Positions 12,809 through 42,064 of a DNA stretch of 64,000 nt are shown piece after piece (position 1 is the stretch's first letter; every line of letters begins with the position of its first letter). The notes beneath the pieces are model-generated. The model saw nothing but the letters and a program-made list of their open reading frames with translations. It was not told the DNA's origin and searched no databases. The position numbers and the translations under genes were made by a program. This stretch comes from an uncultured Planctomycetales bacterium (GTDB taxonomy: Bacteria > Omnitrophota > Gorgyraeia > Gygaellales > Profunditerraquicolaceae), in assembly GCA_964579435.1 (NCBI GenBank), contig CAZOGI010000011.1, positions 18,655 to 82,654 on the forward strand, written 5' to 3'.

Positions 12809-12881
12809 GGTAAGGGTTGGTTTTGCTTCTACTGGTGTCAGGTGTCCTGTGTCTTGTGTCTAACCCTGATCCGTTACCCGG
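12809..12881 (-). repeat. GACAC-heptad palindromic intergenic repeat element, copy a (reverse orientation)
   Basis: The core ctggtgtcaggtgtcctgtgtcttgtgtc is the reverse complement of GACACAAGACACAGGACACCTGACACCAG. Flanked by GGTAAC-like arms. Confidence 0.6.
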
Positions 12882-12889
12882 AGGTCCGC

Positions 12890-13375
12890 ATGTGCCAGGC
12901 AGCGATCTATCCAGGGACGTTCGATCCGGTCACGTACGGACATCTCGATCTCATCAGGCGCGCGGTGGGGGTATTCGGGGAGGTGACGGTCGCGGTCGCC
13001 GCCAATCCGCACAAGAAACCGCTCTTTAGCATGCAGGAGCGGGTTAAACTCCTGCAGCGCTCAACCGCGGATTTCCCCGGGGTGACGGTGGAGTCGTTCC
13101 ACGGGTTGGTCGTCGATTACGCGCACCGCAAAAAAGCGAAGGTCCTTATACGCGGCCTGCGGATGCTCTCCGATTTCGAGTATGAATTCCAGATGGCGCT
13201 GACGAACCGTAAATTCAATCCCGAAGTCGAAACCATTTTCCTGATGCCTCAGGATTGTTACAGCTATCTCTCCAGCAAGCTGCTGCGCGAAGCAGTCTCT
13301 TTGGGGGCAGATGTCTCTTTCTTCGTTCCTGATTTCGTTCAGGCCGCGCTCAAAAAGAAAATCGGCAACCGTTAG
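12890..13375 (+). CDS. coaD: Phosphopantetheine adenylyltransferase
   Basis: MCQAAIYPGTFDPVTYGHLD nucleotidyltransferase motif. Confidence 0.9.
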   Translation: MCQAAIYPGTFDPVTYGHLDLIRRAVGVFGEVTVAVAANPHKKPLFSMQERVKLLQRSTADFPGVTVESFHGLVVDYAHRKKAKVLIRGLRMLSDFEYEFQMALTNRKFNPEVETIFLMPQDCYSYLSSKLLREAVSLGADVSFFVPDFVQAALKKKIGNR

Positions 13376-13402
13376 CGGGCAGGCAGGTATGCCTGGTCGC
13401 AG

Positions 13403-13840
13403 TTGAGGATTCCGGTCGCGCAGGTGCCGGCCGAGGGGATCCGGATGGCAGCCGTTCTTGATCCGGCGGATCTGGATGTCGCAATCGGGGGAGGGTCTCT
13501 CTGCGGCCCGGTTACGGTTGCGGCGACGGTGAGCCGCATCACCAATGCCCTGACCGTCGTGATGACGCTGCAGGGGTCCCTTCGGGTGCAGTGCGGCCGT
13601 TGCCTGAGAGAAATCATTCGCGATTTTCAAGGAGAGGCGCGGTTCAGCTATCAGATGGATCCGGGCACCCGGGAGATAGATCTGGTCCCGGAGATCCGCG
13701 AAGAGATCCTGGCGCAGTATCCGCTGAAGCCCTTGTGCGATCCCGCGTGCAAAGGGTTGTGCGGGGGCTGCGGGAAAAACCTCAATACCGGCGCCTGCGC
13801 CTGCACGGCTCAGGCAGGACACAACAGCATGAGATCGTAG
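13403..13840 (+). CDS. yceD: YceD/DUF177 family protein (23S rRNA accumulation); start uncertain (TTG 13403 or ATG 13445)
   Basis: C-terminal CxxC...CxxC cluster typical of DUF177. Conserved position upstream of rpmF. Confidence 0.6.
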   Translation: MRIPVAQVPAEGIRMAAVLDPADLDVAIGGGSLCGPVTVAATVSRITNALTVVMTLQGSLRVQCGRCLREIIRDFQGEARFSYQMDPGTREIDLVPEIREEILAQYPLKPLCDPACKGLCGGCGKNLNTGACACTAQAGHNSMRS

Positions 13841-13857
13841 AAAGGAGCGCGGAACAC

Positions 13858-14058
13858 GTGCCATTACCAAAACGAAGACATTCCAAGGCGCGCGGCAGAA
13901 GGCGCCGTACCCACTGGACACTGACGGGCGTTTCGCTCACCCCCTGTCCGCAGTGCAAGCAGCAGAAGGCGCCGCACCGCGTCTGCCCGGTGTGCGGTTT
14001 TTATGGCGGCCGGCAGGCGATGGAAGTGACGGTCCGCGAGAAAAAACCAAAACGCTGA
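13858..14058 (+). CDS. rpmF: 50S ribosomal protein L32
   Basis: GTG start. VPLPKRRHSKARGRRRRTHW, then CxxC...CxxC. Confidence 0.85.
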   Translation: MPLPKRRHSKARGRRRRTHWTLTGVSLTPCPQCKQQKAPHRVCPVCGFYGGRQAMEVTVREKKPKR

Positions 14059-14083
14059 TAATCCGAGGAGCCAAGAGACGCAT

Positions 14084-17749: not shown

Positions 17750-17792
17750 GGCCGGTCGCCGCAAGCCAAACGTAACATAAAGGAGGAACAGA

Positions 17793-18032
17793 ATGGCGGT
17801 ACAGGATAAGGTGAAGTCGATCATCGCCGAACAGCTGGGCGTGAAGGCCGAAGAGGTTACTCCCGAAGCTTCGTTTATCGATGATTTGGGCGCGGATTCC
17901 CTGGACACCGTTGAGCTGGTCATGGCGTTGGAAGAAGAGTTCGGCATTGAGATCCCCGATGAGGACGCCGAGAAGATCACGACCGTCGGCGATGCCGTCA
18001 AGTATATCGAGGAAAAAACCGCCAATAAATAA
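17793..18032 (+). CDS. acpP: Acyl carrier protein
   Basis: [20 protein letters not shown]. Confidence 0.95.
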
Positions 18033-18096
18033 AGCGTGACGCTTCCCTTTTTTGAATAAAAAGTACCCCGCCGTTGTCCGTGGCGGGGTAACTTTT
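18033..18096 (+). terminator. Intrinsic terminator or attenuator downstream of acpP
   Basis: AGCGTGACGCT hairpin followed by a T6 run, then CCCCGCC-N9-GGCGGGG (18066-18088) followed by TAACTTTT. Confidence 0.5.
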
Positions 18097-18130
18097 AGTG
18101 GCTCGGATGCAGGAGGTTGACCGTACGACT

Positions 18131-19375: not shown

Positions 19376-19399
19376 CGGGCAAAGACGGCGACACGCCGA

Positions 19400-27855: not shown

Positions 27856-27915
27856 CACAAGACACATGACACATGTTTAGGCGAAAAGTTTCTGGCCTGC
27901 GGTGTTATGTTACTG
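27844..27915 (+). repeat. GACAC-heptad repeat element, copy b (supplies the HDT-stop of the upstream gene)
   Basis: CATGACACGTGACACAAGACACATGACACATG. The CATGACACGTGA encodes H-D-T-stop of the HD-GYP gene. Confidence 0.6.
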
Positions 27916-27940
27916 AAATCAGAACAAGCAAAAAAAATAT

Positions 27941-27968
27941 TTGACAAACAACGAATATATAGTATAAT
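27941..27968 (+). promoter_or_regulatory. Consensus sigma70 promoter TTGACA-16-TATAAT with an upstream A-tract, abutting rplM
   Basis: TTGACA at 27941-27946 and TATAAT at 27963-27968. The ATG at 27978 is only 9 nt downstream, so the mRNA is leaderless or nearly so. Confidence 0.6.
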
Positions 27969-27977
27969 TTTCAACCT

Positions 27978-28409
27978 ATGCAGAAAACATACGTTCCCCG
28001 CAAAGAAGATATCAAGCGCCAGTGGCTGATCGTTGACGCCAAAGACAAAGTGTTGGGCCGCGTTGCGGCAAAAGTAGCGAGTTTGCTGCGCGGCAAACAC
28101 AAGACGGTCTTTACCCCCCATATGGATACGGGGGACGGGGTCATCGTGATCAATGCCGCTTTGGTGCGCGTGACCGGACGCAAACTCTCGCAGAAGGTGT
28201 ATCGCCGTTTTTCCGGCTACCCGGGCGGTTTGAAAGAGGTGACTCTCTCAAACATGCTCTCGAAAAAGCCGGAGACGGTGATGAAGCTGGCGGTCCAGCG
28301 GATGCTGCCGCAGAATCGGCTGGGCAGGGATTTGATGAAGAATCTGAAGATATTCGCAGATGAGGTTCACCGGCAGCAGGCTCAGAAGCCGGCGGCTCTG
28401 GAGGCTTAA
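27978..28409 (+). CDS. rplM: 50S ribosomal protein L13
   Basis: [30 protein letters not shown]. Confidence 0.95.
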
Positions 28410-28417
28410 GGACTGGA

Positions 28418-28810
28418 ATGGCTGAGAAAATCCCCATATATATCGGCAGGAGAAAAGAAGCGATTGCCCGGGTGCGGGTCAAGCCCGGCGCCGGCGTTAT
28501 TGTCGTCAACGGCAAACCGTACGATACCTACTTCCTCCGGGAAACGGATCAGATCATCGTCAAGCAGCCTTTGATCGCGACGAATAACCTGGCCAAATTC
28601 GATATCTCCGCGCGTCTGTGCGGCGGCGGGTTGACCGGCCAGGCGGGAGCTTTGCGCCTGGGCATCGCGCGCGCGCTGGCGGCTTCGGATGCTACCTATA
28701 AGGATGTCATGCGCAAGCAGGGCTTCCTGACGCGCGATCCGCGGGCGAAGGAGCGCAAGAAGTACGGCCTGAAGGGGGCACGCAAACGCTTCCAGTGGAC
28801 AAAACGCTAA
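28418..28810 (+). CDS. rpsI: 30S ribosomal protein S9
   Basis: C-terminal GARKRFQWTKR. Confidence 0.95.
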   Translation: MAEKIPIYIGRRKEAIARVRVKPGAGVIVVNGKPYDTYFLRETDQIIVKQPLIATNNLAKFDISARLCGGGLTGQAGALRLGIARALAASDATYKDVMRKQGFLTRDPRAKERKKYGLKGARKRFQWTKR

Positions 28811-28844
28811 ACTAACGCTGCGCAGTGCGCAGTTGCAGGACTGA

Positions 28845-28883
28845 CCCCGCGGGGCGCTAAAGCGATCCGCGGGGTTTTTGTTT
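28845..28883 (+). terminator. Rho-independent terminator after rpsI
   Basis: CCCCGCGG-N14-CCGCGGGG followed by TTTTTGTTT. Confidence 0.65.
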
Positions 28884-29065
28884 GCGGGCTCATGAGCGTA
28901 GGTTGTTTGACACACCCCCCGCGCTCAGGGGCAACTTGTTCAATAAGGCATTGCGCCAATGTCCCCTCGCGGGGAAGTTGCGCGGGTGTTGCGCTTTCTG
29001 CGCAAAGACACCGGACCCCAGAAGCTTTAAGAGAGAGGTATGGTCTTGTTCCGACGAGAAAATGC

Positions 29066-29094
29066 TTGACGATGCGTTTGATTTCGATTAATAT
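29066..29094 (+). promoter_or_regulatory. Sigma70-like promoter TTGACG-17-TAATAT upstream of argC
   Basis: TTGACG at 29066-29071 and TAATAT at 29089-29094. Confidence 0.45.
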
Positions 29095-29146
29095 GGACTC
29101 ATTGTTGCGACGCTACGGTCCTGCCACACCGAAAGGAAATCCGACG

Positions 29147-30175
29147 ATGGTACGGGTAGGGATTATCGGCGCCAGCGGTTTCGCCGGCGAAGAGCTTTTG
29201 GCGATACTGCTTCGCCACGCCCATGTTTCGATTAAGCACCTCTCCGCGAAGATCGACGCTGCGCGGCCGATCACCGAGCTTTTTCCGCGCTTCAAGAACC
29301 AGATCGACCTGGTCTGCGGACTCCCCGATGCGGCGGCTGCCGCCGCATCGTGCGAATGCGTCTTCCTGGCGTTGCCGCACACCGTTTCGCTTTCGTTCGT
29401 CCCGGAGCTGCTCAAGGCCGGGGTACGCGTGATCGATCTCTCCGCCGACTACCGTTTCCGCGATGCAGGCGTGTATGAAAAGCATTACCATACCAAGCAT
29501 CCGGACGCCGCTTCGCTTAAAAAAGCGGTGTACGGCCTGACGGAGCTCTATCGCCAGGATGTCGCCCGGGCCCATTTTGTGGCTAACCCCGGTTGTTATC
29601 CGACGGCCGCGATCCTGGGATTGGCGCCGCTTTTGTCGTGCGCCCACGATTCCCTCGATACCGCTTCGATCATCATCGATGCAAAGTCCGGCGTATCCGG
29701 TGCCGGCCGCAAGGTGCATGAATCATTCATCTTCTGCGAGGTGAACGAGGACTTCAGGGCATACAAGGTTGACGCGCATCAGCATGCCCCGGAGATCGAC
29801 CAGGAGCTTTCGCGCCTTGCCGGCACGCGCCTGAGCGCGACGTTCGTGCCGCACCTGCTGCCTCTGAACCGGGGGATATTGGAGACGATATATGTGCGCA
29901 AAAAACCCGGTAAAAAAGCGCAGGACCTTAAGGCCCTGAAGTTGTTCCAGCGATTCTATAAAGAGGAACCGTTTGTGCGCGTGCGGGAAGCGGGCGTTTT
30001 CCCGCGGCTGCGCGACGTCGTGAATACGAACTTCTGCGATATCGGTGTCTACGAGACCAGCGATAAGATCATCGTGATCTCGGCGATCGATAATCTCCTC
30101 AAGGGCGCCGCCGGGCAGGCGGTGCAGAATTTCAACGTGATGTTCGGTTTCCCCCAGACCCAGGGGTTGGCATGA
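29147..30175 (+). CDS. argC: N-acetyl-gamma-glutamyl-phosphate reductase
   Basis: VRVGIIGASGFAGEEL and active-site Cys (NPGCYPTA). Confidence 0.9.
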   Translation: MVRVGIIGASGFAGEELLAILLRHAHVSIKHLSAKIDAARPITELFPRFKNQIDLVCGLPDAAAAAASCECVFLALPHTVSLSFVPELLKAGVRVIDLSADYRFRDAGVYEKHYHTKHPDAASLKKAVYGLTELYRQDVARAHFVANPGCYPTAAILGLAPLLSCAHDSLDTASIIIDAKSGVSGAGRKVHESFIFCEVNEDFRAYKVDAHQHAPEIDQELSRLAGTRLSATFVPHLLPLNRGILETIYVRKKPGKKAQDLKALKLFQRFYKEEPFVRVREAGVFPRLRDVVNTNFCDIGVYETSDKIIVISAIDNLLKGAAGQAVQNFNVMFGFPQTQGLA

Positions 30176-31308
30176 AACTCTACCCAAAGGCGATCCTGCC
30201 CCGGGGGTTCCGCGCCAGCGCCACCGTTGCCGGTATCAAGCGTTCGGGAAGGCTTGATCTTGCCTTTATCGATTTCGGCGCTCCTGCCGTCGCCGCGCAT
30301 CTGTTTACGACCAATACCCTCCAGGCAGCGCCGCTGCGCCTGAACCAGCGGTATCTGGGCGAGCACCGGACGTTCCGGGGGCTGCTCGTCAACAGCGGCA
30401 ATGCCAACTGTTTTACGCTGCGCCAGGGGATCCGCGACGCTGCTTCGCTCGCCGAGCGCTGTGCCCGCCTCCTGGGAGTCGTTCCGGGGACGATCCTGGT
30501 CGGCTCAACGGGTATCATCGGCAGGAGGCTGCCGGTCGAGAAGATAGACCGGGCCCTTCCGGGCCTGTGCGCGGCGGTGACCGAGAACGGCATTCAGGCC
30601 GCGGCGCGGGCGATCATGACGACGGACACCTTCGCCAAAGAGGCGACGGCCCGCTTTTGCGTCGGTCGCACGCCGGTGACGGTCTGCGGCATCGCCAAAG
30701 GAGCCGGGATGATCGCGCCGAACATGGCGACGATGCTCTGTTATGTCTTCACCGACGCCTCCCTGACCCGCGCGCGGCTTGAGCGGATCGTGCGCCGCTG
30801 CGCCCAGACGAGCTTCAACGCCATAACGATCGACGGGTGCATGAGCACCAACGATACCCTCGGGGTCTTTGCCAACGGCCAAAGCCGGGTGCGTATCGCC
30901 TCGGACGCACAGGAGCGCGCGTTTTCCCAAGCGCTCGGTGCGGTTTTCCTGAGGCTGGCGCAGCTTATCGTGCGCGATGCGGAGGGCGCGACCAAGTTCG
31001 TGACGATCCAAGTCGACGGCGCCCGTTCTCCCCGGGAGGCGCGCGGCGCGGCGCTTGCCGTTGCCAACTCCAGTCTCTGTAAGTGCGCTTTCTACGGGTC
31101 AAGCCCCAATATATTCGGTCGCACGGTTGCGGCACTGGGCGCGGCGGGGGTGCGCTTTGACGAGGAGAAGATCAAGGTCACCTTCTCGCCCCTCAAGAAA
31201 AAGGATATAACCCTGCGCATCCGCTTGGGAAGCGCGGGCGCTTCGGCAACGATCTATACCTGCGATCTGACGCCCGCATACGTCAGGATCAACGCCGAAT
31301 ACAACTAA
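30172..31308 (+). CDS. argJ: Bifunctional ornithine acetyltransferase / N-acetylglutamate synthase
   Basis: ATML autoproteolysis site (MATMLCYVFTD). Confidence 0.9.
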   Translation: MKLYPKAILPRGFRASATVAGIKRSGRLDLAFIDFGAPAVAAHLFTTNTLQAAPLRLNQRYLGEHRTFRGLLVNSGNANCFTLRQGIRDAASLAERCARLLGVVPGTILVGSTGIIGRRLPVEKIDRALPGLCAAVTENGIQAAARAIMTTDTFAKEATARFCVGRTPVTVCGIAKGAGMIAPNMATMLCYVFTDASLTRARLERIVRRCAQTSFNAITIDGCMSTNDTLGVFANGQSRVRIASDAQERAFSQALGAVFLRLAQLIVRDAEGATKFVTIQVDGARSPREARGAALAVANSSLCKCAFYGSSPNIFGRTVAALGAAGVRFDEEKIKVTFSPLKKKDITLRIRLGSAGASATIYTCDLTPAYVRINAEYN

Positions 31309-31339
31309 ATAAGGAGCCTGCTGCGGCAGCGAGGCACGT

Positions 31340-32194
31340 ATGGAAGAGGCGATCCGCAAGGCGGAAGTTCTTATCGAAGCGCTGCCTTACATCAAGAAGT
31401 TCCACCGTAAGGCCGTGGTCATCAAGTACGGGGGCAGCATCCTGGGCGAGGAGAAGATCCGCCGGACCGTGCTGGAGGACATCGTTTTCCTGAGTTTCAT
31501 GGGGTTGCGTCCGCTCCTCGTCCACGGCGGCGGCCCCAATATCAGCGAGCGCATGCGCACGACCGGCAAAAAGACCGAATTCGTCGACGGGATGCGGGTG
31601 ACCGATGAGGAGACCCTGCGCCTGGTCTCCGAGGAGCTCAAGACCCTCAACGATACCATCGTCAAGGAGCTCACCGACCTGGGCGCCCACGCCGTCGGCC
31701 TCAACGGCCGGGACAACAATCTGATCCAGGCCCAGAAGAAAAAGGCAAAGATCGACCTGGGGCTGGTCGGGCAGGTGACGGGGGTCGAAGCCGCGGGGCT
31801 GCAGGAGCTGCTGAAGGCAAATACCGTGCCGGTCATCATCCCGATGGGCATCGGTACCGACGGGAAAGTGTACAACGTCAACGCGGACGAGGCGGCGGCG
31901 CAGGTAGCGGTGGCGGCGAAAGCCGAGAAGTTCGTGCTCCTGACCAACGTCAAGGGGATCATGCGCAACGCCGAGGATCCGGCGTCTTTCATCTCGACCC
32001 TCAACATAAAGGAAACCCGTTCGCTGATCGCTTCGGGGGTGGTGCAGCAGGGGATGATCCCCAAGGTGAGCGCCTGCATCGAGGCTTTGGAGGGCGGCGT
32101 CCGCAAGACCCATATCATCGATGCGCGCATGCCGCACGGCCTGCTCCTTGAGATTTTTACCGATACCGGCGTCGGGACCGAGATCGTCAAATAG
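31340..32194 (+). CDS. argB: Acetylglutamate kinase
   Basis: VIKYGGS, LLVHGGGP. Confidence 0.9.
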   Translation: MEEAIRKAEVLIEALPYIKKFHRKAVVIKYGGSILGEEKIRRTVLEDIVFLSFMGLRPLLVHGGGPNISERMRTTGKKTEFVDGMRVTDEETLRLVSEELKTLNDTIVKELTDLGAHAVGLNGRDNNLIQAQKKKAKIDLGLVGQVTGVEAAGLQELLKANTVPVIIPMGIGTDGKVYNVNADEAAAQVAVAAKAEKFVLLTNVKGIMRNAEDPASFISTLNIKETRSLIASGVVQQGMIPKVSACIEALEGGVRKTHIIDARMPHGLLLEIFTDTGVGTEIVK

Positions 32195-32219
32195 GGTATT
32201 TCGTCAGGATAGGGTAACC

Positions 32220-33404
32220 ATGAAAAAACAGGAATTGTTCCAGGTCTACCAGGACGGGGTGCTGCCGACGTATACCAAGACCCCGCTGATCTTCGTGAAG
32301 GGCAAGGGCAGCTTTCTGTGGGATATCGACAACCGGCGTTTCCTGGACTTCTTCCCGGGATGGGGGGTCGGCAACCTCGGACACTGTCATCCCAAGGTCG
32401 TGCAGGCGGTGCGGGAACAGAGCGGCAAACTTATTTTCGTGCCGAACAATTATTACCACCCCGGCCAGGCACGGCTCGTACGGGAGCTGTCGCGCCATAC
32501 CTTTGCGGCGAAGATGTTTTTCTGTAATTCGGGTGCCGAAGCCAACGAAGGGGCGATCAAGTTCAGCCGTAAATACGGCAAGGGCCGCTACGAGGTCATC
32601 TCTTTCCTGAACTCTTTTCACGGCCGCACCCTGGCTGCCCTGGCGGCGACCGGCCAGGAGAAATATCAGCGGGGCTTTGAGCCGTTGCCGGCCGGTTTCA
32701 AATCAATCCCCTTCAACGATCTGGCTGCGGTCAGGTCGGCGGTCTCGGATAAGACCGCCGCGATCCTGATTGAATTGATACAGGGGGAGGGCGGGATCAA
32801 TATCGCTTCCCCTGATTTCGTCAAAGGGCTGCGCGCGCTCTGCGATGAGCGGGATATCCTGCTTATCGTCGATGAAGTGCAGACCGGCATCGGCCGTACC
32901 GGCACGATGTTCTGCTACCAGCACTACGGTATCGAGCCGGATATCATGACCCTGGCAAAGGCTTTGGGCGGGGGGTTGCCGATCGGTATGATGGTGGTGC
33001 GCAAGGCGATCGCCGAGACCCTGCAACCGGGGATGCACGCCTCGACCTTCGGCGGCGGACCGGTGGTGACGCGCGCTGCCGAGGCGGTGCTCAAGGCGGT
33101 CCGCCAGGAGCGGCTCTTGAGCAATGCGTCGCAGAAAGGCGAGTACCTCAGAGAGAAGCTCCGGGGTCTGGCGCAACGGTATCCGCTCATCAAGGAGATC
33201 CGCGGCAAAGGCTTGATGGTGGGGGTGGAGCTTTCCGTCCCCGGCAAGGCCCTGGTTGAGGAGTGCATGAAGCGGGGATTGCTTATCAACTGCACCCATG
33301 ACTGCGTCCTGCGCCTGATGCCAGCGCTCTCGGTGAGCAAGAAAGAGATCGATACGGCGATGGGGATATTGACCGCTTCGTTGGAAACCGTTGCGAAAGG
33401 GTGA
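32220..33404 (+). CDS. argD: Acetylornithine aminotransferase
   Basis: Class-III aminotransferase. DEVQTGIGRTG PLP-Lys region. Confidence 0.9.
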   Translation: MKKQELFQVYQDGVLPTYTKTPLIFVKGKGSFLWDIDNRRFLDFFPGWGVGNLGHCHPKVVQAVREQSGKLIFVPNNYYHPGQARLVRELSRHTFAAKMFFCNSGAEANEGAIKFSRKYGKGRYEVISFLNSFHGRTLAALAATGQEKYQRGFEPLPAGFKSIPFNDLAAVRSAVSDKTAAILIELIQGEGGINIASPDFVKGLRALCDERDILLIVDEVQTGIGRTGTMFCYQHYGIEPDIMTLAKALGGGLPIGMMVVRKAIAETLQPGMHASTFGGGPVVTRAAEAVLKAVRQERLLSNASQKGEYLREKLRGLAQRYPLIKEIRGKGLMVGVELSVPGKALVEECMKRGLLINCTHDCVLRLMPALSVSKKEIDTAMGILTASLETVAKG

Positions 33405-34378
33405 GTGTGATGGATAAAGATCTTCTCTCGATCCTTGACCTGAGCACCGCCGATCTGGAGCGGCTTTTCTCCCTGACCGACCGGCTCAAGAAGAACCGCA
33501 AGCAGTTCGCCCGTTCCCTCTCGGGCAAGACCCTGGCGCTCATTTTCCAGAAACCCTCGAACCGGACCAGGGTATCGTTCGAAGTGGGGATGAACCAGAT
33601 GGGCGGGCACAGCATTTATCTTGCCCCGCACGAGATCAATCTGGGGGTGCGCGAGTCGATCAAGGATGTGGCCAAGACGCTCTCCCGGTATATCGACGGG
33701 GTGGTGCTGCGCACCTTCGCCCACGATAACGTCCGCGAGATGGCGCGGCACGCCTGCGTCCCGGTTATCAACGGGCTTTCGGATTTTTCCCACCCCTGTC
33801 AGGCGCTTGCCGACCTCTATACGGTGCGCGAGCAATTCAAGGAGATAAGCGGGCGTACCCTCGCCTACATCGGCGACGGAAACAACGTCTGCAACTCGCT
33901 TCTTTTCATTTGTTCGAAACTGGGGGTCAACATCAATGTCGCCACTCCCCGCGGGTTTGAGCCCCAGGCGCATGTCGTCGATGAGGCGCGCCGGCTGGCC
34001 GCCAAGACCAAAGCGCGGGTGAGCATTTTCAACGTCGTCTCCTCGGCCGCGGAGGCCGCGGACGTCATTTATACCGACGTCTGGACCAGCATGGGACAGG
34101 AAACCGAAGCGGAATCGCGCCGCAGGGCGTTCGCGGCGTTCCAGATCAACCGGGCCCTCCTTCAGCGGGCGAAAAAGCACGTCTTGATCATGCATTGCCT
34201 GCCCGCGCACCGGGGCGAGGAGATAACCGACGAGGTAATAGACAGCGTGCATTCCGTGGTTTTCGATCAGGCGGAGAACCGTTTGCATGTGCAGAAGGCG
34301 GTGCTCCTGGAGCTTTTGAAGAAAAACGGCGCGCAAGGCGGTAACGTATGCCGCGTGCAGCGAAAGGCACACTCATGA
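33401..34378 (+). CDS. argF: Ornithine carbamoyltransferase
   Basis: STRTR carbamoyl-phosphate motif, HCLP. GTG at 33401 overlaps the argD stop; alternative ATG at 33410. Confidence 0.9.
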   Translation: MSVMDKDLLSILDLSTADLERLFSLTDRLKKNRKQFARSLSGKTLALIFQKPSNRTRVSFEVGMNQMGGHSIYLAPHEINLGVRESIKDVAKTLSRYIDGVVLRTFAHDNVREMARHACVPVINGLSDFSHPCQALADLYTVREQFKEISGRTLAYIGDGNNVCNSLLFICSKLGVNINVATPRGFEPQAHVVDEARRLAAKTKARVSIFNVVSSAAEAADVIYTDVWTSMGQETEAESRRRAFAAFQINRALLQRAKKHVLIMHCLPAHRGEEITDEVIDSVHSVVFDQAENRLHVQKAVLLELLKKNGAQGGNVCRVQRKAHS

Positions 34379-35559
34379 AGAAAGTGGTTCTGGCGTATTC
34401 CGGGGGGCTCGATACCTCCTGTATCGTCAAATGGTTGACTGACCGGGGCTGGGGGGTGGTTTGCTTCGTCGCCGATCTCGGCCAGGGGCTGGGCAGGGGA
34501 GAGGACCTGGCGGCGATCCGCGCGCGGGCGATGGCTGCCGGCGCGCAGAAGGTGGTCATCAAAGACCTGCAGGACGAATTCGTCGCTGATTTTATCGTCC
34601 CGGCGCTGAAGGCCGATGCCGCCTATGAGGGCAAATATCTCCTGGCGACGGCTTTGGGCAGGCCTTTGATAGCCAAACACCTCGTGCAAATCGCCCATGC
34701 CGAAGGAGCGCAGGCAATCGCGCACGGCTGTACCGGAAAAGGCAATGACCAGGTCAGGTTTGAGGTGACGGCGCAGATACTGGATCCGCGTTTGGAGATC
34801 ATCGCTCCCGTGCGGCAGTGGGAATTCAAGTCGCGTGAGGAAGAGATCGAGTATGCCCTCAAGAGCGGGATCCCTATTGACGTGACCAAAAAGAAACCAT
34901 ACAGCATCGACCGCAACCTTTGGGGCATCAGCATCGAGGCGGGGATTCTGGAGGATCTGCGGCAGGAACCGCCGCAGGATGCATACCTCATGACGAAAAA
35001 TCCCGGTCAGTGGCCGGGCGCCGCGCGCTACCTGCGCATCGGGTTCGAAAAGGGCGTTGCGGTGATGCTGGACGGGAAGCGCATGAAGCTGAAGGATATG
35101 ATCGTTACCCTCAACCGGGTCGCGGGCGCCTACGGCGTCGGACGGTATGACATGGTGGAGAACCGCCTGGTGGGCATTAAGTCCCGGGAGATCTATGAAG
35201 CGCCGGCGGCGACCGTGCTGATGAACGCGCACCGCGAGCTTGAATGCCTGGTGCTTGACCGGGAGCTGGCGCACTATAAAGAGACGGTTTCCCTCAAGTA
35301 CGCTGAGTTGGTCTATTACGGGCTCTGGTATTCCCCGCTCAAAGAGGCACTCGACGCCTTCGTCGCGCAGACGCAAAAGAGGGTCAGCGGGGAGGTCAGG
35401 CTGAAGCTGCATAAGGGCAGTTGCGTTGCGGTCGGGCGTTCGTCGCGCTATTCGCTGTATCAGAAAAAACTGAGCACCTACGGCGCCGAGGATGCGTTCG
35501 ACCAGTCGCTGGCCGAGGGGTTCATCAGGCTGTGGGCGTTGCCGTATCGGCGGGCGTAG
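34375..35559 (+). CDS. argG: Argininosuccinate synthase
   Basis: AYSGGLDTS PP-loop. ATGA overlap with argF. Confidence 0.95.
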   Translation: MKKVVLAYSGGLDTSCIVKWLTDRGWGVVCFVADLGQGLGRGEDLAAIRARAMAAGAQKVVIKDLQDEFVADFIVPALKADAAYEGKYLLATALGRPLIAKHLVQIAHAEGAQAIAHGCTGKGNDQVRFEVTAQILDPRLEIIAPVRQWEFKSREEEIEYALKSGIPIDVTKKKPYSIDRNLWGISIEAGILEDLRQEPPQDAYLMTKNPGQWPGAARYLRIGFEKGVAVMLDGKRMKLKDMIVTLNRVAGAYGVGRYDMVENRLVGIKSREIYEAPAATVLMNAHRELECLVLDRELAHYKETVSLKYAELVYYGLWYSPLKEALDAFVAQTQKRVSGEVRLKLHKGSCVAVGRSSRYSLYQKKLSTYGAEDAFDQSLAEGFIRLWALPYRRA

Positions 35560-35570
35560 AAGGGGACGAC

Positions 35571-35670
35571 GGGTAACCAGATACAAGACACCAGACACAA
35601 GACACAAGAATAATTCATTCTGCGGCGACGCATAAGCGGTCTCTGCTTGTCTCTGGTGCATTGTTACCGG
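35571..35670 (+). repeat. GACAC-heptad palindromic repeat element, copy c
   Basis: GGGTAACCAGATACAAGACACCAGACACAAGACACAAGA ... TCTCTGCTTGTCTCTGGTGCATTGTTACCGG forms an imperfect ~100-bp inverted repeat. Confidence 0.6.
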
Positions 35671-35684
35671 TAAAGAGGAAGACA

Positions 35685-37082
35685 ATGGCGGACAAACTCT
35701 GGGGCACACGGTTCCCGAAGAAGACCAGCGTCCTGACGGATAGGTTTACCTCCAGTATCTCCTACGACCGGCGCCTGGCGCTCTATGATATCCGCGGCAG
35801 CATCGCCCATGCCCGGATGCTCGGAAAACAGGGGATCATACCCGCGCGCGACGCCGGCGCCATCGTGCGCGGGCTCCAGACGCTGGAACACAGGCTCCGT
35901 AAGGGGCTGCTGCGCATCGACCCCGCGGCGGAGGATATCCATTCGGCGGTACAGGAAGCGCTGCAGCGGCTTATCGGCGCGCCTGCCGCGCGGCTGCATA
36001 CCGCGCGTTCGCGCAACGACCAGATCGCCCTTGATATCCGTCTCTATATGAAAGACGCGGTGCAGGACCTGTGCGAGGCAGTGGTCTTGCTGCAGCGTCA
36101 GGTCGTGCAGTTCGCCCGGCAGAACAAAGAGGTGATTATCCCCGGCTATACGCACCTGCAGACGGCGCAGTGCGTCCTGTTGAGCCATCATCTTCTGGCG
36201 TATGTCGAGGCCTTGGAGCGAGACCGGGAGCGCCTGAGCGGTTCGCTCAAACGCATCGACCAGATGCCCCTGGGCAGCGGCGCCCTTTCGGGTACCGGTC
36301 TGCCGATCGACCGCGAAGCGGTGCGCCGGATGCTGGGGTTCTCCCGCCTGACCCGCAACAGCATCGACAGCGTCAGCGACCGCGACAGCATCATCGAGGT
36401 GCTGGCGGCGCTCTCCATCCTGATGGTCCACCTTTCTCGTATCGCCGAGGATCTGATTCTTTGGGCGACGAAAGAGTTCCATTTCATCGACATCGATTTC
36501 TCCTTCTGCACCGGTTCCAGCATCATGCCGCACAAGAAGAACCCCGACGTCTTGGAGCTCATCCGCGGGTCGGCGGCTCAGGTCCACGGGAGCCTCTCGG
36601 CCCTGCTGATGCTCATGAAAGGCCTGCCGCTCTCCTATAACCGCGACCTTCAGCTGGACAAGCCGCCGCTCTTCGAATCGGTCGATACCGCCAAAGAGGT
36701 CCTGGCGATATTCGTGGCGCTTTTCCAGAATATCGTCATCGAACGGGAGGCGGTACGCGCCCGTATAAACGACGAGGCTCTTTTTTCGGTGGATATCGTG
36801 GAGTATCTTATCCGCAAAGGCGCTTCGTACCGCCAGGCCCACGATATCGTCGGCCGACTGGTGAGGGAGTGTCTCGATAAGGGCCGTCCGATCCGCACCC
36901 TCGGCCGCGCGGCGTTGCAGCAGTTTTCGCCGCTGCTAAAAGAGGATGTCAAAGCGATCCTCTCCCCGGAAGCTTCGGTGCGGCTGAAACGTTCCCGGGG
37001 AGGGACGAATCCGCAGATGGTTGGGCGCGAACTTGCGCGCTGGGAGCGCGTGCTGGGCGTGCGCAGAAGGAGGAACGAATGA
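35685..37082 (+). CDS. argH: Argininosuccinate lyase
   Basis: MADKLWGTRF start. GSSIMPHKKNPD fumarate-lyase signature. Confidence 0.95.
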   Translation: MADKLWGTRFPKKTSVLTDRFTSSISYDRRLALYDIRGSIAHARMLGKQGIIPARDAGAIVRGLQTLEHRLRKGLLRIDPAAEDIHSAVQEALQRLIGAPAARLHTARSRNDQIALDIRLYMKDAVQDLCEAVVLLQRQVVQFARQNKEVIIPGYTHLQTAQCVLLSHHLLAYVEALERDRERLSGSLKRIDQMPLGSGALSGTGLPIDREAVRRMLGFSRLTRNSIDSVSDRDSIIEVLAALSILMVHLSRIAEDLILWATKEFHFIDIDFSFCTGSSIMPHKKNPDVLELIRGSAAQVHGSLSALLMLMKGLPLSYNRDLQLDKPPLFESVDTAKEVLAIFVALFQNIVIEREAVRARINDEALFSVDIVEYLIRKGASYRQAHDIVGRLVRECLDKGRPIRTLGRAALQQFSPLLKEDVKAILSPEASVRLKRSRGGTNPQMVGRELARWERVLGVRRRRNE

Positions 37083-37633
37083 GGCAGACTCTTTGCGTTC
37101 TGGGGGGGGTAGTGTTTCTGGGGGCGTTTTTAAGTCCGCTCGGCGCCCAGTCCCCCGAGGAAAAACTGACGATAACCACGTACTATCCGTCCCCGTTCGG
37201 CTCTTACAACGAGTTACGGGCAAGGAAATTGGCGCTCGGGGATGCCGAGATGCCTTCGCGCGCGGGGGATATGACTTTCCACTTGCAGGCAGGCGACCCT
37301 GCTGCCTGGCCCGCCGGGAAAGAGGGGCAAGCGAGCTATTCGCAGCAGGTCAAGGCGCTTTTTTATTACGACGGGTCCCTCTGGCGTCGGGCGTCGGGCG
37401 CACAGGCCTCGGCGGTAGTGGAGAAAAACTCGAACATCAACGCGACGTTTCCTCTGGGGATGACGGTCGCCGAATGGCCGGTGTGTTTCCTGGTCGGTTT
37501 CGGCTCGACGGCCGGCAGCGGCGCATTCGACGACGGCTGCTCGATCATCGATCAGGGGGGGAACTGGGCGATGCAGATATGGGCCGACGGCGGCGAGAAC
37601 ATCAAGTGTCAGGCGCGCTGCCTCAAATTCTAA
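37079..37633 (+). CDS. Secreted hypothetical protein (signal peptide) embedded between argH and lysA
   Basis: ATGA overlap with argH. MRQTLCVLGGVVFLGAFLSPLGAQS signal. Confidence 0.55.
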   Translation: MRQTLCVLGGVVFLGAFLSPLGAQSPEEKLTITTYYPSPFGSYNELRARKLALGDAEMPSRAGDMTFHLQAGDPAAWPAGKEGQASYSQQVKALFYYDGSLWRRASGAQASAVVEKNSNINATFPLGMTVAEWPVCFLVGFGSTAGSGAFDDGCSIIDQGGNWAMQIWADGGENIKCQARCLKF

Positions 37634-37645
37634 AGACATCTTTGT

Positions 37646-38923
37646 ATGCACGATTTCCATTACCGTAACGGCACGCTCTACTGCGAAGGGATGTCCGTCG
37701 TTTCCCTGGCGCGCCGCTACGGCACGCCGCTGTACCTGTACAGCTCTGCCACGCTCACCGGCCACCTACGCAAGCTTCAGGAGGCGTTCGCGCCGGTACA
37801 ACCCCTCATCTGCTATTCCGTCAAGGCGAATTCAAACCTCGCGCTCCTGCGTTCGCTCATCCGCTGCGGCGCCGGCCTGGACATCGTCTCGGGAGGCGAA
37901 CTGTACCGGGCGCTGCGCGCCGGGTGCCCCGCGCAGCGCATCGTCTATGCCTCGGTCGGCAAAACCGCAGAGGAGATCGCCGAGGCAATACGCCGGGGGA
38001 TCCTCTTCTTCAACGTCGAGTCCCTGCCCGAGCTGGCGCAGATCGACCGCGTCGCACGCCGGCTCCGGCGAACCGCCCAGATCGCCATCCGCATCAACCC
38101 CGACGTCGAGGCAAAGACGCATCACTACATCACCACCGGCACCCTGACCAACAAATTCGGCATCGATCTGAAGAGCGCGCGGAACATCTTCGCGGCGCGC
38201 AAAAAATTCTCCCGTTTACGCCTGACGGGAGTGCATATCCATATCGGTTCCCAAATAACCGAGAGCGCTCCTTTTGTCGCGGCCCTGACCAAGATCGCTT
38301 CCTTCGTAAAGGAGCTTAAAGCAGCAGGCGCCCCCCTTGAATACCTGAATATCGGCGGCGGGATGGGGATCGTCTACCGCGACGAAACCCCCCAAACGGC
38401 GGTGGTCTATGCGCGCCGGATCGTGCCGCTCCTGCAGCGTACGGGCCTGCGGATCATTATGGAGCCGGGCAGGTTTATCGTCGGGAATGCCGGGATACTG
38501 GCGGCAAAAGTGCTCTACGTCAAGCGTTCGGTGCGCAAGACCTTCGTGATCGTCGACGCCGGCATGAACGATCTGGTGCGTCCTTCGCTCTACGGGGCGT
38601 ATCACCTGATCCAACCGGCGCGCCGCAGAGGCGGGACATGCGAGAAAGTCGATGTGGTGGGGCCGATCTGCGAGAGCGGTGATTTCCTGGCCAAGGAGCG
38701 GCTCCTGCCGCGGGTAAAGGAGAACGATATCCTGGCGGTGATGAGCGCCGGGGCGTACGGGTTTTCCATGTCATCGACCTACAACTCGCGCCGCCGTGCC
38801 GCTGAGGTGCTGGTCAAAGGCAACGAGGCGTATCTGGTCCGCCGGAGGGATTCATTCCCGGACCTGGTGCGCAACGAGATAGTCCCTGCCTGGCTGCAGG
38901 GGAAAGAGAGAATCACCCCATGA
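37646..38923 (+). CDS. lysA: Diaminopimelate decarboxylase
   Basis: Fold-III PLP decarboxylase. YSVKAN PLP-Lys, EPGR, CESGD. Confidence 0.9.
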   Translation: MHDFHYRNGTLYCEGMSVVSLARRYGTPLYLYSSATLTGHLRKLQEAFAPVQPLICYSVKANSNLALLRSLIRCGAGLDIVSGGELYRALRAGCPAQRIVYASVGKTAEEIAEAIRRGILFFNVESLPELAQIDRVARRLRRTAQIAIRINPDVEAKTHHYITTGTLTNKFGIDLKSARNIFAARKKFSRLRLTGVHIHIGSQITESAPFVAALTKIASFVKELKAAGAPLEYLNIGGGMGIVYRDETPQTAVVYARRIVPLLQRTGLRIIMEPGRFIVGNAGILAAKVLYVKRSVRKTFVIVDAGMNDLVRPSLYGAYHLIQPARRRGGTCEKVDVVGPICESGDFLAKERLLPRVKENDILAVMSAGAYGFSMSSTYNSRRRAAEVLVKGNEAYLVRRRDSFPDLVRNEIVPAWLQGKERITP

Positions 38924-39756
38924 ATATTCCAGGGCAGGGAATGCGCAAGGTACCGTTCACGAAACTGGTCGCTTCCGGCAACGATTTTGTGCTTGTCGAA
39001 GAAAAACACCTTCCCGCGCGCGTTCCCCTGACCGCGCTCGCGCGCATGATGACGAACCGCACCGAAGGCATCGGCGCCGACGGGCTTCTGGTCGTGCGCG
39101 CCGGTAGTGCCTCCTGCGCCCGGATGCGTATCTTCAACGCCGACGGTTCGGAAGCAGAGATGTGCGGCAACGGCGCGCGCTGCGTCGCGTACTATCTGGG
39201 AAAGGCGCATTCCTCTTTCCTGACCGCGGCCGGCCGCATCGAAGCGGCGCTCGCACAGACGGGCGTGCGGGTCCACCTGACCGATCCGTTCGGCCTCAAG
39301 GAGGATCTCCCGATTAGGGTCTGCGGCCGGACCCTGCGGGTGAACGTCCTGAATACCGGGGTGCCGCATGCGGTCGTTTTCGTGAACGGGCTTGAAAAAA
39401 TCCCTGTCTTTTCCCTCGGAAGGGCGATCCGGTTTCACCGCCGGTTTGCCCCCGCCGGGACAAATGTCAATTTCGTTGAGCCGCAGTCGCAGGATGCCAT
39501 CCGGGTACGGACCTATGAACGTGGCGTCGAAGACGAAACCGGCGCCTGCGGTACCGGCAGCGTTGCCGCCGCGCTCATTTTTTCGCTCAAGAGCGGATTC
39601 TGCGGATGCGTCAAGGTACACACCGCCAGCGCCGAAGTCCTGCGGGTTTATTTCGAGCGTGAGGGCAGGTCTTTTCGCCGCGTCTGGCTTGAGGGGAGCG
39701 TGCGTCGGATAGGCGCGGGGACGTTTTTCGTCCCGAGTGCAAAGGAGAAGACATGA
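38920..39756 (+). CDS. dapF: Diaminopimelate epimerase
   Basis: ASGNDFVLV and two catalytic Cys (MCGNGARC, GACGTGS). Alternative start at ATG 38941. Confidence 0.9.
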   Translation: MNIPGQGMRKVPFTKLVASGNDFVLVEEKHLPARVPLTALARMMTNRTEGIGADGLLVVRAGSASCARMRIFNADGSEAEMCGNGARCVAYYLGKAHSSFLTAAGRIEAALAQTGVRVHLTDPFGLKEDLPIRVCGRTLRVNVLNTGVPHAVVFVNGLEKIPVFSLGRAIRFHRRFAPAGTNVNFVEPQSQDAIRVRTYERGVEDETGACGTGSVAAALIFSLKSGFCGCVKVHTASAEVLRVYFEREGRSFRRVWLEGSVRRIGAGTFFVPSAKEKT

Positions 39757-40310
39757 TCTTTGTAGCCGCCGCGGTCGTTGCCGGTTTCGTGGTATTCGTT
39801 TTCGTCGGACTCTACAACAACCTTATCGTCCTCAAGAACCAGACGCGCAATGCCTGGAGCCAGATCGACGTGCAGCTCAAGCGCCGCCACGACCTGATCC
39901 CCAACCTGATTGAGGCGGTGAAGGGGGCGATGGAGTACGAACAGTCGACCCTCTCCCGGATCGTGGAAGCGCGCAACCGCGCGATGAGCGCGCAGGGAGT
40001 GCGCGAGAAGGCCCAGCAGGAGAACGTGTTGACCGAGGCGCTGGGGAAGCTCTTTGCGCTCGCCGAAAACTATCCGCAGCTGAAGGCTAATCAGAACCTG
40101 CTGCAGCTGCAGCAGGAACTTTCCTCGACCGAGGACGGGATAAGCGCTTCGCGGCAGTTCTATAACGAAAGCGCCACACGGTTCAATACCGCCCAGGAAA
40201 CATTCCCCGGGTCGCTGGTCTCGCGTATGGGCGGTTTTATGCCGGCGCAGCTGTTTGTGGTCGATGACGCAAGCCAGCGCCAGGCCCCGCGGGTCGACCT
40301 CAAAGGATAA
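39753..40310 (+). CDS. lemA: LemA family membrane protein
   Basis: N-terminal TM helix, then NAWSQIDVQLKRRHDLIPNL LemA motif. Confidence 0.8.
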   Translation: MIFVAAAVVAGFVVFVFVGLYNNLIVLKNQTRNAWSQIDVQLKRRHDLIPNLIEAVKGAMEYEQSTLSRIVEARNRAMSAQGVREKAQQENVLTEALGKLFALAENYPQLKANQNLLQLQQELSSTEDGISASRQFYNESATRFNTAQETFPGSLVSRMGGFMPAQLFVVDDASQRQAPRVDLKG

Positions 40311-40320
40311 GGGAGGCGGG

Positions 40321-41226
40321 ATGCGAAAGGAAGGATCCGGTATGTTCAGAGGCTCTATAGTCGCGATCGTCACGCCGTTCAAAAAAGGGACCGTTGATGA
40401 GAAGACCCTGCGCGCGCTCATCGAGTTCCAGATCACCAACGGCACCAGCGGGATCGTCCCCTGCGGGACCACGGGGGAGTCGGCGACCCTTTCGGTAGAG
40501 GAGCACGAACGCGTCATCGAAGTGACCATCGACCAGGCGAAGAAACGCGTACCCGTCATCGCCGGGACGGGTTCGAATTCAACCGCCGAAGCGATCGAGT
40601 TGACCCGCCATGCCGCGCGGGCGGGGGCAGACGCGTCTTTGCAGGTTTCTCCCTACTACAACCGGCCGACCCAGCAGGGGCTCTACGCTCATTTCCGGGC
40701 GGTCGCCGAAGCGGTCAAGATCCCGATCATCCTCTACAACATCGCCTCCCGTACCGGCGTCAATATCGAGCCGGAGACCATGGCGCGGCTGGCACGCGAC
40801 TGCAAGAATATCGTCGGGGTCAAGGAGGCCTCGGGTAACCTCGACCAGATGGCGCGCGTGCGCCAGGCTTGCGGCGAACGATTTCTTCTGTTGTCTGGGG
40901 ACGACAGCCTGACCCTGCCCGTTTTAAGCATCGGCGGCGCCGGGATTATCTCGGTTGCGGCTAACCTCATCCCCCAGGATGTCGCCTCGATGGTCAGCGC
41001 CTTTGAGAGCGGGGATCTTGCGGCTGCGCAGGCGCTGCATTACCGGATGCTCCCGCTCGTTAAAGCGCTTTTTTTGGAGACCAACCCCATCCCCGTCAAG
41101 ACAGCCCTGGGGCTTATGGGGATGTGCGAGCCGACGCTGCGGTTGCCGATGTGCGAACCGACGCCCCCGACACTGGAGCGTCTGAAACAGGCCCTGAGCG
41201 AGTACGGGCTCCTGAAGGCCAAGTAG
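40321..41226 (+). CDS. dapA: 4-hydroxy-tetrahydrodipicolinate synthase
   Basis: GGGAGG RBS, then ATG 40321. GTTGES, Schiff-base Lys region. Confidence 0.9.
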   Translation: MRKEGSGMFRGSIVAIVTPFKKGTVDEKTLRALIEFQITNGTSGIVPCGTTGESATLSVEEHERVIEVTIDQAKKRVPVIAGTGSNSTAEAIELTRHAARAGADASLQVSPYYNRPTQQGLYAHFRAVAEAVKIPIILYNIASRTGVNIEPETMARLARDCKNIVGVKEASGNLDQMARVRQACGERFLLLSGDDSLTLPVLSIGGAGIISVAANLIPQDVASMVSAFESGDLAAAQALHYRMLPLVKALFLETNPIPVKTALGLMGMCEPTLRLPMCEPTPPTLERLKQALSEYGLLKAK

Positions 41227-41236
41227 GGAGGAAGCG

Positions 41237-41989
41237 GTGGAATTCCCCAAAACAAATCAAAACAGGATCAAGATCGGGATCATCGGCGCCTGCGGCAAGA
41301 TGGGGCGGCGGCTGTTTGAGCTTGCGGCGCACGACGATGACCTCGAGATCACGTTTGCCCTCGAGCAGAAAGGCACCGCCGCGATCGGAAAAGAGCTCGG
41401 CAAGATCAAGGTCTCCTCGAACCCCGACGGGGTCTTCCTGACCGACGTGGTCATCGATTTTACGGTCCCGCAGGCCTCGATGGCAAATCTTTCCGCGGTT
41501 GCCCGGCACCGTAAAGCGCTTGTCCTGGGCACGACCGGTTTTAGCGCCGAAGAGCTCAGGGAGATAGAGGAAGCCTCAAAGGTCATCCCGGTCGTGTTCT
41601 CCCCGAATATGTCCGTCGGGGTGAACGTGCTTTTCTCGATCCTTCCGGAAATCGCCCGGCGCCTGGGGCGGGAATACAAGATCGAGATCGTCGAGGCCCA
41701 CCATACGGCCAAGAGGGACGCTCCGTCGGGCACTGCGCGCAAGTGCGCCGAGGTGCTGCAGGCGTACGTGCAGGAGCCGATCCCCACGCATTCCATCCGC
41801 CTCGGCGATATTGTCGGCGACCACACCATTATCTTCTGCGGCAATGCCGAGCGTATCGAGGTGAAACACCAGGCACATTCGAGGGACCTCTTCGCCATCG
41901 GCGCTCTGAAGGCGGCCAAGTGGGTGCACGGCAAGCCGCCGGGATTGTATTCGATGCAGCAGGTCCTGGAAAAGAAACATGACACATGA
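41237..41989 (+). CDS. dapB: 4-hydroxy-tetrahydrodipicolinate reductase
   Basis: GTG start 5 nt after GGGAGG. IGIIGACGKMGR. Ends ...KKHDT, with the tail encoded by repeat copy d. Confidence 0.9.
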   Translation: MEFPKTNQNRIKIGIIGACGKMGRRLFELAAHDDDLEITFALEQKGTAAIGKELGKIKVSSNPDGVFLTDVVIDFTVPQASMANLSAVARHRKALVLGTTGFSAEELREIEEASKVIPVVFSPNMSVGVNVLFSILPEIARRLGREYKIEIVEAHHTAKRDAPSGTARKCAEVLQAYVQEPIPTHSIRLGDIVGDHTIIFCGNAERIEVKHQAHSRDLFAIGALKAAKWVHGKPPGLYSMQQVLEKKHDT

Positions 41990-42064
41990 CACCAGACACC
42001 GGAATGATTCTTCCCGCGGTGACGGGGGGGAGTACGGGTTATTCTTTGTTTCTGGTGCCCGGTG
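41978..42064 (+). repeat. GACAC-heptad palindromic repeat element, copy d (supplies the HDT-stop of dapB)
   Basis: CATGACACATGACACCAGACACCGG ... TTTGTTTCTGGTGCCCGGTG inverted arms. Confidence 0.6.

Follow-up and report, generated by a model that had tools for sequence, protein, structure and literature searches.

The DNA considered here is a 64-kb stretch of contig CAZOGI010000011.1 (positions 18,655 to 82,654; GenBank assembly GCA_964579435.1), which comes from an uncultured bacterium of the Omnitrophota lineage and is referred to below as the window. The elements of interest are four short arrays of tandem 7-nt units with a GACAC core, which lie in spacers between housekeeping genes. Genes were called with a self-trained caller, and the calls were checked against the called genes of L121, a sequence from a relative with the same gene order. 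All 57 called genes are on the plus strand, and all 8-kb bins have a positive GC skew; positions 1–64000 look like one long co-directional leading-strand stretch. Most of the encoded proteins were scanned with Pfam and NCBIfam and gave housekeeping functions only, and Rfam 15 had no match anywhere in the window at gathering thresholds and none at E ≤ 1 in 27700–42200.

Four arrays of GACAC heptads

A first-pass annotation of the window had named four loci with tandem GACAC units, and such units are present at all four. Copy 1 lies in the 119-nt spacer between rsmD and coaD (12771–12889), where gene calls and the domain scan place it antisense to the genes; its array (12835–12860, minus strand) reads, in the order of the GACAC strand, GACAC-AA, GACAC-AG, GACAC-CT and GACAC-CA. 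The other three copies are in the sense orientation, with their arrays on the plus strand. Copy 2 occupies a 122-nt spacer between the gene for a CHASE2/HD-domain signalling protein and rplM, and its array (27840–27872) consists of GATAC-AT, GACAC-GT, GACAC-AA, GACAC-AT and GACAC-AT. Copy 3 is found in the 125-nt argG/argH spacer (argH ATG at 35685), with an array of GATAC-AA, GACAC-CA, GACAC-AA and GACAC-AA at 35580–35605, and copy 4 in the 85-nt dapB/dapL spacer, with an array of GAAAC-AT, GACAC-AT, GACAC-CA and GACAC-CG at 41974–41999.

The two-unit pattern GACACNNGACAC, with at most one mismatch, matched the window 15 times against an expected 2.27, a count that none of 100 dinucleotide-preserving shuffles reached. 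Thirteen of the 15 matches are located in the four loci, and chance two-unit seeds also occur in the window. Tandem Repeats Finder called a period of 7 at each locus, and copies 1–4 contain 4, 5, 4 and 4 head-to-tail units, respectively, when the degenerate edge units are included; heptad repeats as a class have at least three. The loci are unlinked, being spread over 29 kb of the window, and the same heptad unit is used at all of them. Searches in which each core position was relaxed in turn uncovered no fifth array in the window and, combined with Tandem Repeats Finder, no second heptad family there. Outside the arrays, GACAC is among the rarest pentamers of its composition in the window. 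Collectively, the GACAC loci form a single non-random family in the window.

Conservation within the heptad is highly uneven. Across the 17 units, 3 of 85 core positions depart from the majority base, all three being the middle base of an edge unit, compared with 15 of 34 spacer positions (approximately 44% divergence; Fisher p = 2e-7), a contrast that is inflated by the delimitation of units by eye via the core. The core can be written GA(C>T/A)AC, followed in most cases by AA, AT or CA as the 2-nt spacer. When arrays 2, 3 and 4 were placed in register, they differed at 4–6 of 8 spacer positions and at 0–1 of 20 core positions (p = 0.0005 to 0.015). Adjacent units had the same spacer in 3 of 13 cases (expected fraction 0.17), which does not exceed the rate for units paired at random. 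Even when the manner of delimitation is taken into account, four perfect cores beside approximately 44% spacer divergence are unlike the decay of a slipped repeat. Because the pentamer is invariant while the spacers are free, GACAC would appear to be recognised by something, either copying machinery or a binding factor.

All four elements are situated in spacers at or directly behind stop codons, in agreement with their earlier description as lying immediately 3' of genes, and arrays 2 and 4 overlap the stop itself. Array 2 encodes the final codons (..I-H-D-T) and the TGA stop (27853–27855) of the CHASE2/HD-domain gene. Array 4 encodes the tail of DapB (about K-H-D-T) and its TGA stop (41987–41989); DapB is 4–5 residues longer than in two relatives, and the excess is exactly the array-encoded tail. 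Array 3 starts 20 nt past the argG stop. The distance to the next start codon is 75–105 nt for the sense copies 2–4 and approximately 30 nt for copy 1. A position between operons, which had been proposed for all four, applies to copy 2, which is followed by a promoter, but not to copies 1, 3 and 4, which lie inside conserved gene strings (rsmD/coaD, argG/argH and dapB/dapL) that are tightly packed in relatives. The promoter downstream of copy 2 is a perfect sigma70-type sequence (TTGACA-16-TATAAT, 27941–27968) between the element and rplM. Within 27941–27980, only 9 nt separate the promoter from the rplM ATG, and these include no Shine-Dalgarno sequence; transcripts of rplM-rpsI may have little or no leader.

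Inverted arms, a shared block and folding

When the four copies were oriented by their arrays and aligned, a second common piece was evident 15–40 nt downstream of the array. It is found on the plus strand in copy 3 (35646–35658; CTTGTCTCTGGTG) and copy 4 (42045–42057; TTTGTTTCTGGTG), where 17 nt separate the end of the arm from the dapL ATG (42075), and on the minus strand in copy 1 (12797–12809; CTTGCCCCTGGCG). The arm of copy 2 is degenerate (27888–27910, plus strand; GTTTCTGGCCTGCGGTGTTATGT), representing a weaker GTTTCTGGCC..GGTGTTATGT version of the arm, and its final 10 nt are able to pair with the last array unit. The pattern YTTGYNYCTGGYG matches the arms of copies 1, 3 and 4 exactly and, apart from these, matches exactly only the reverse complement of array 3; on this basis, the downstream piece corresponds to approximately two heptads in inverted and decayed form, in which GAGAC, GAAAC or GGGGC replace GACAC. 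The polarity is the same in all four copies, running from an intact forward array through a spacer to a decayed inverted remnant. The GTGTC-rich complementary arm described by the first-pass annotation is therefore real as an inverted arm, but it is a decayed two-unit remnant that carries GTCTC, GTTTC or GCCCC instead of GTGTC.

Copies 3 and 4 have a further block in common directly after the array (35608–35630, plus strand, GAATAATTCATTCTGCGGCGACG; 42002–42024, plus strand, GAATGATTCTTCCCGCGGTGACG), with the consensus GAATRATTC.T.C.GCGG.GACG. When the downstream parts alone were aligned, the score was reached by 0.6% of shuffles (p = 0.006), and since their homology extends beyond the heptads, copies 3 and 4 are, as judged by alignment, related copies. 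The signature of copies 3 and 4, GACACNNGACACNNGAATNATTC, was matched 10 times in metagenomes, about as many as expected by chance according to a rough estimate, and none was homologous downstream. The palindrome GAATNATTC, also common to copies 3 and 4, was considered as an ARG-box-like site and rejected: it has three matches where 1.1 are expected, a number that 8 of 100 shuffles also reach, and it is not spaced as expected of an ARG box. Small open reading frames (ORFs) beginning in ATGACAC units were likewise set aside as inconsistent, being present in copies 2 and 4 and not in copy 3.

The GGGTAAC and GTTACC motifs, which had been described as frequent flanks of the elements, occur in copies 1 and 3 but not in copies 2 and 4. 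Even in copy 3, the right-hand ACCGGTAAAG..AGGAAG probably belongs to the argH leader and not to the repeat, because it also precedes argH in L122, a relative that lacks the element.

The RNA folding check that had been proposed with the annotation separated copy 3 from the rest. Compared with shuffled sequence, copy 3 gave z-scores of -3.2 on the plus strand and -4.4 on the minus strand, with the inverted arm as the partner of the array, whereas copies 4, 2 and 1 (about -1.8, -1.3 and +0.1, respectively) folded no better than shuffles. The term "palindromic" consequently holds for the architecture, with the inverted arm motif in all four copies, but only weakly for structure, in which copy 3 alone exceeds shuffled sequence. 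Covariation of each array with its own arm was rejected as well; duplex energies of the left arm against all four downstream regions favored its own arm for copy 3 only.

These data also bear on the proposal that the elements are structured transcription terminators or hairpins that stabilise 3' ends. Such a role would suit their location directly 3' of genes, the long imperfect hairpin of copy 3 and, in another genome, a strong hairpin behind a stop codon (L009, described below). Repetitive extragenic palindromic (REP) hairpins in Escherichia coli protect upstream mRNA, providing a precedent for stabilisation. However, none of 16 terminator-like sites in 27700–42300 falls in copies 2–4, and no GC-rich stem with a T-run is found there. 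The hairpins of copies 1, 2 and 4 do not surpass those of shuffled sequence, and copy 1 runs counter to the direction of transcription. At the positions of copies 3 and 4, the flanking genes overlap or almost touch in relatives, and termination there would cut off argH and dapL. The arrays are intact and the right arms have decayed, contrary to what would be expected under selection for pairing. An assignment as intrinsic terminators is not supported, and we regard the terminator or stabilising-hairpin explanation as very improbable. GTGTC was also considered as a primase recognition site, an idea prompted by the sites of T7 primase; as we reason from the strands, however, copies 2–4 have the wrong orientation for this, and no supporting evidence was found.

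GACAC arrays in relatives and in other genomes

The window shares the gene order rplM-rpsI-argCJBD(F)GH-lysA-dapF-dapA-dapB-dapL-folK-panC with L121 and with L122/L123. Its nearest relatives are Omnitrophota-like and at most 73% identical in amino acid sequence (ArgG of L121, 73%). LysA has one identical database entry, and the next best are at or below 70% identity, the named ones being proteins from Candidatus Omnitrophota metagenome-assembled genomes (MAGs). A Geobacter origin, which the gene content (dapL and the arg/lys cluster) had first suggested, was rejected on the strength of these matches. No GACAC array was found in the 16–21 kb of syntenic DNA in L121, L122 and L123. The corresponding spacers are also shorter: argG and argH, 125 nt apart in the window, overlap by 25 nt in L121 and are separated by 94 nt in L122, and the 85-nt dapB/dapL spacer compares with 41 nt in L121 and 7 nt in L122. 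Because syntenic relatives lack the arrays and have shorter spacers, the elements are probably additions made in the lineage of the window, and in copies 1, 3 and 4 these additions would be inside likely operons. That the nearest relatives have no array at the corresponding sites bears out the earlier view that the elements are specific to this lineage. The argG/argH spacer of L122, from the Omnitrophota, holds an unrelated hairpin (z = -2.0).

Other features were observed in the window. Two similar promoter-like stretches (AAAATGCTTGAC ... TAATAT or TTAAAT) are found at 29059–29105 and 58831–58877 and are 70% identical over 47 nt; the former is upstream of the likely true argC start (ATG at 29147) and the latter is upstream of a 64-residue helix-turn-helix-like ORF (58902–59096), which itself precedes pilM. 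An ORF of 184 codons between argH and lysA (37079–37633) has no Pfam match, and L121 has a 144-residue ORF, also without a Pfam match, in the same place.

When one genome of each species was searched for runs of four GACAC heptads, at least 120 loci were identified, where our own estimate of the chance expectation is about one. Among the matches listed, the loci are distributed over Acidobacteriota, Chloroflexota, Planctomycetota, Verrucomicrobiota, Bacteroidota, Gemmatimonadota, Streptomyces and others. Viral contigs contained 91 loci with GACAC arrays, compared with 57 and at least 120 for the control cores ACGCA and CCAAG, respectively. The idea that GACAC is a motif conserved across phyla was rejected for this reason; because control cores are also widespread, the wide spread of GACAC reflects the general abundance of heptad repeats. 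Approximately 50 of the 167 period-7 arrays among the genome loci listed have non-GACAC units.

The same numbers bear on the possibility that the arrays are ordinary simple-sequence repeats (SSRs), which would have grown in situ by slippage from a chance GACAC..GACAC seed and would be neutral, immobile and functionless. Heptanucleotides are described as the commonest class of 5–11 nt repeats in prokaryotes (Mrazek 2007, as cited in PMC4679880), and among the 120 genome loci listed, arrays of period 7 outnumber those of periods 8 and 6 more than 10-fold (167 versus 11 and 6). The similar frequency of unrelated cores in viral contigs and the presence of chance two-unit seeds in the window are also expected from slippage. 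Slippage, however, copies whole units, yet neighbouring spacers in the window differ while the cores are perfect, and adjacent units are no more alike than random ones. Nor does it account for the use of one core in all four arrays with no other heptad family in the window, for the same inverted remnant downstream of each array, or for the non-repeat block common to copies 3 and 4. Slippage as the whole explanation is decidedly unlikely.

Among the matches listed, an inverted partner lies within 200 nt of 17% of GACAC arrays, versus 2–3% for control cores, and these partners mostly have the GTGTC arm first (17 versus 4); 24 of 121 arrays are inside called genes. The arrays most similar to those of the window, with four units and AA, AT or AG spacers, come from Omnitrophota and Elusimicrobia MAGs. 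In L009, from an Omnitrophota MAG, the array begins approximately 15 nt past a stop codon and forms a hairpin with an inverted array approximately 100 nt downstream (z = -4.7). In Omnitrophota MAGs, four-unit arrays are also read in frame, on the sense strand, in a ProS-like gene (L070, 199–224; ..KDTGHKTQDTRK..) and in a MiaB-like gene (L076, 5140–5165; ..KTHDTRHKTH..), and both occupy segments that are variable among solved homologues. L072, from an Elusimicrobia MAG whose ArgG is 57% identical, contains a four-unit GACAC array and a GTGTC arm in its argG/argH spacer (5059–5110), the same spacer as that of copy 3; the L072 array sits right before the argH ribosome-binding site.

The fixed core and the L072 array raise the possibility that the arrays are binding platforms, in which GACAC every 7 nt is read by a sequence-specific RNA- or DNA-binding protein, and that together they place housekeeping operons under a regulatory network peculiar to this lineage. 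Such a system would work in a manner akin to that of TRAP (GAG/UAG with 2–3 nt spacers), HutP (UAG every 7 nt) or the binder proposed for the TAACTGA and Nostoc repeats, and deletion of a heptamer repeat in Nostoc alters reporter expression (bioRxiv 10.1101/2022.06.06.494920). An invariant core with free spacers, in arrays of 3–5 units, is consistent with such a platform. So is the strand bias: the GACAC strand is the sense strand in seven of eight cases (three of the four window copies plus L009, L070, L072 and L076), and in other phyla, arrays between co-directional genes are sense in 39 and antisense in 20 cases among the matches listed (p = 0.018). The second argG/argH array, in a MAG as distant as L072, points in the same direction, although by our own estimate (126 arrays, 4 sites and about 3000 spacers) such a coincidence has a chance of approximately 0.1–0.2. 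Against this, the antisense copy 1 is equally well preserved, and the window arrays lie behind stops and not in leaders or over ribosome-binding sites, copy 2 being upstream of the next promoter. Arrays also occur in frame inside coding regions of related MAGs, relatives run the same operons without them, and neither a HutP or TRAP domain (Pfam and NCBIfam) nor any other candidate binder was found among the scanned window proteins. Operators of the TRAP/HutP type share with the GACAC elements a short invariant core at fixed spacing with free spacers (3/85 versus 15/34), but they are located in 5' leaders on the sense strand and have a cognate binder gene, whereas the GACAC arrays abut stops and copy 1 is antisense. 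We consider a binding platform possible but doubtful. The more specific proposal, that GACAC every 7 nt is the operator of a putative binding protein in a post-transcriptional or DNA-level network at core-operon junctions, which would have arisen independently at the Elusimicrobia argG/argH junction and would cover the operons for arginine and lysine synthesis, ribosomal proteins and coenzyme A synthesis, is unlikely.

A family of dispersed heptanucleotide repeats

The GACAC elements combine the features of a known kind of sequence: a 7-nt period over at least three units, several loci, and a mostly extragenic location with absence from the same sites in relatives. Short tandemly repeated repetitive (STRR) sequences are tandem heptanucleotide units dispersed in cyanobacterial extragenic DNA. 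Like STRRs and the long simple-sequence repeats (LSSRs) with 7-nt units (Mrazek et al. 2007, as cited in PMC4679880), the GACAC arrays are dispersed tandem heptanucleotides that are extragenic and confined to particular lineages. STRRs and LSSRs are usually longer, however, with identical units consistent with slippage, whereas the GACAC arrays are short and heterogeneous in their spacers. Phase-variable SSRs (contingency loci), long runs of one unit whose number switches the expression of a gene, also differ, since the window arrays have heterogeneous units, number 3–5 units each and lie behind the stops of housekeeping genes.

Closer parallels are available in Geobacter and in the TAACTGA repeats. 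Geobacter metallireducens contains "Gmet_H4", a four-heptad GGGACCG element at 49 inter- and intragenic sites (Aklujkar et al. 2009; PMC2700814), and G. bemidjiensis has [CAATTGA]n and [AACGTTG]n families (Aklujkar et al. 2010; PMC2996986). As with GACAC, each Geobacter family uses one heptamer at many unlinked sites per genome, with about four units per copy inside a slightly longer conserved element; the copies lie 3' and 5' of housekeeping genes and also in frame inside genes, and the G. bemidjiensis families mostly lack counterparts in sister species. The unit and the phylum are different, and the GACAC family has in addition a free 2-nt spacer and a decayed inverted partner. TAACTGA direct repeats are found in marine Beggiatoaceae, cyanobacteria and Bacteroidetes, and 13 of the Beggiatoaceae sets overlap the upstream stop codon (MacGregor 2015; PMC4679880). 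They resemble the GACAC arrays in forming sets of 2–6 heptamers that are nearly all intergenic, some of them over the upstream stop, in that related heptamers form no repeats, and in their patchy phylogenetic distribution. Their sets mostly end a few nt from the next start, in place of the ribosome-binding site, whereas the GACAC arrays hug the upstream stop, and their units are exact copies with no inverted partner arm. A literature search with the exact repeat strings retrieved no papers. We conclude with high confidence that the elements are a lineage-specific family of dispersed heptanucleotide repeats, of the same kind as STRRs, the TAACTGA repeats and the Geobacter elements.

How the family came to be dispersed is less certain. 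The elements may be insertional, that is, REP/MITE-like (MITE, miniature inverted-repeat transposable element) or self-propagating sequences that survive where they are harmless, an explanation on which our judgement is evenly balanced. It is based on the common polarity and architecture, the homology of copies 3 and 4, the absence from relatives, the overwritten stops and the in-frame copies in related lineages. REP sequences, their composites (bacterial interspersed mosaic elements, or BIMEs, and REPINs) and MITEs are, like the GACAC elements, small, non-coding and extragenic in either orientation, with an inverted-repeat architecture capable of forming hairpins, and they often lie behind stops inside operons. 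The proposed REP/MITE-like character was thus supported by the non-coding, extragenic nature of the copies, their common architecture and the homology of copies 3 and 4. It was not supported by associated features of such elements, since the arms are composed of heptads, pairing is decayed, and a GTAG-type head, a RAYT or transposase and a target-site duplication were not found in the window. A MITE has terminal inverted repeats and a target-site duplication, whereas the inverted arms are internal heptad arrays and not defined termini and, as judged by eye, the copies are not flanked by a consistent direct repeat.

Other observations weigh against an insertional origin. Only four copies were found by the census, which covered the 64-kb window. 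Pairs of copies other than 3 and 4 share only the heptads and the arm motif, and on this comparison copies 1 and 2 may have originated independently. A stem-loop of the REP/REPIN type has statistical support in copy 3 alone, and in duplex calculations the right arms fit their own arrays no better than those of other copies. No transposase, RAYT (Y1_Tnp) or reverse transcriptase was detected among the scanned window proteins, and inspection of the four copies by eye revealed neither a convincing target-site duplication nor a GTAG-type head. The invariant core, whose contrast with the spacers depends in part on how the units were delimited, could reflect selection for a host function and not a copying mechanism.

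If the insertional explanation is correct, the elements would have spread through the copying and insertion of a small hairpin-type DNA, much as REP/REPIN sequences or MITEs do, possibly helped by local slipped-strand growth, and GACAC would be what the copying machinery, or a binding factor, recognises. The element would persist only where it does little harm, either between genes or in frame within variable protein loops. Its visible effects on the host are spacers longer than those of relatives and, in two genes, a few additional codons followed by a new stop; as a result, flanking genes would no longer be tightly coupled in translation. Within transcripts, the element would form a CA-rich tract and an imperfect stem-loop, through which it could influence mRNA decay or translation in the way that REP elements do.

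Reports of heptamer repeats in cyanobacteria, Beggiatoaceae, Geobacter and other bacteria go back decades, yet no origin or function has found general acceptance. The present case adds an uncultured Omnitrophota-like lineage to the class, together with a consistent inverted-remnant architecture. For annotators, it illustrates that such arrays can give rise to spurious C-terminal residues and stop codons, DapB and the HD-domain protein being examples, and can lengthen the spacers within operons. The sharpest clue that it offers is a pentamer that is fixed while the 2-nt spacer is free between related copies, which simple slippage fails to explain. If the pentamer is a recognition site, heptamer families would be binding arrays and not junk.

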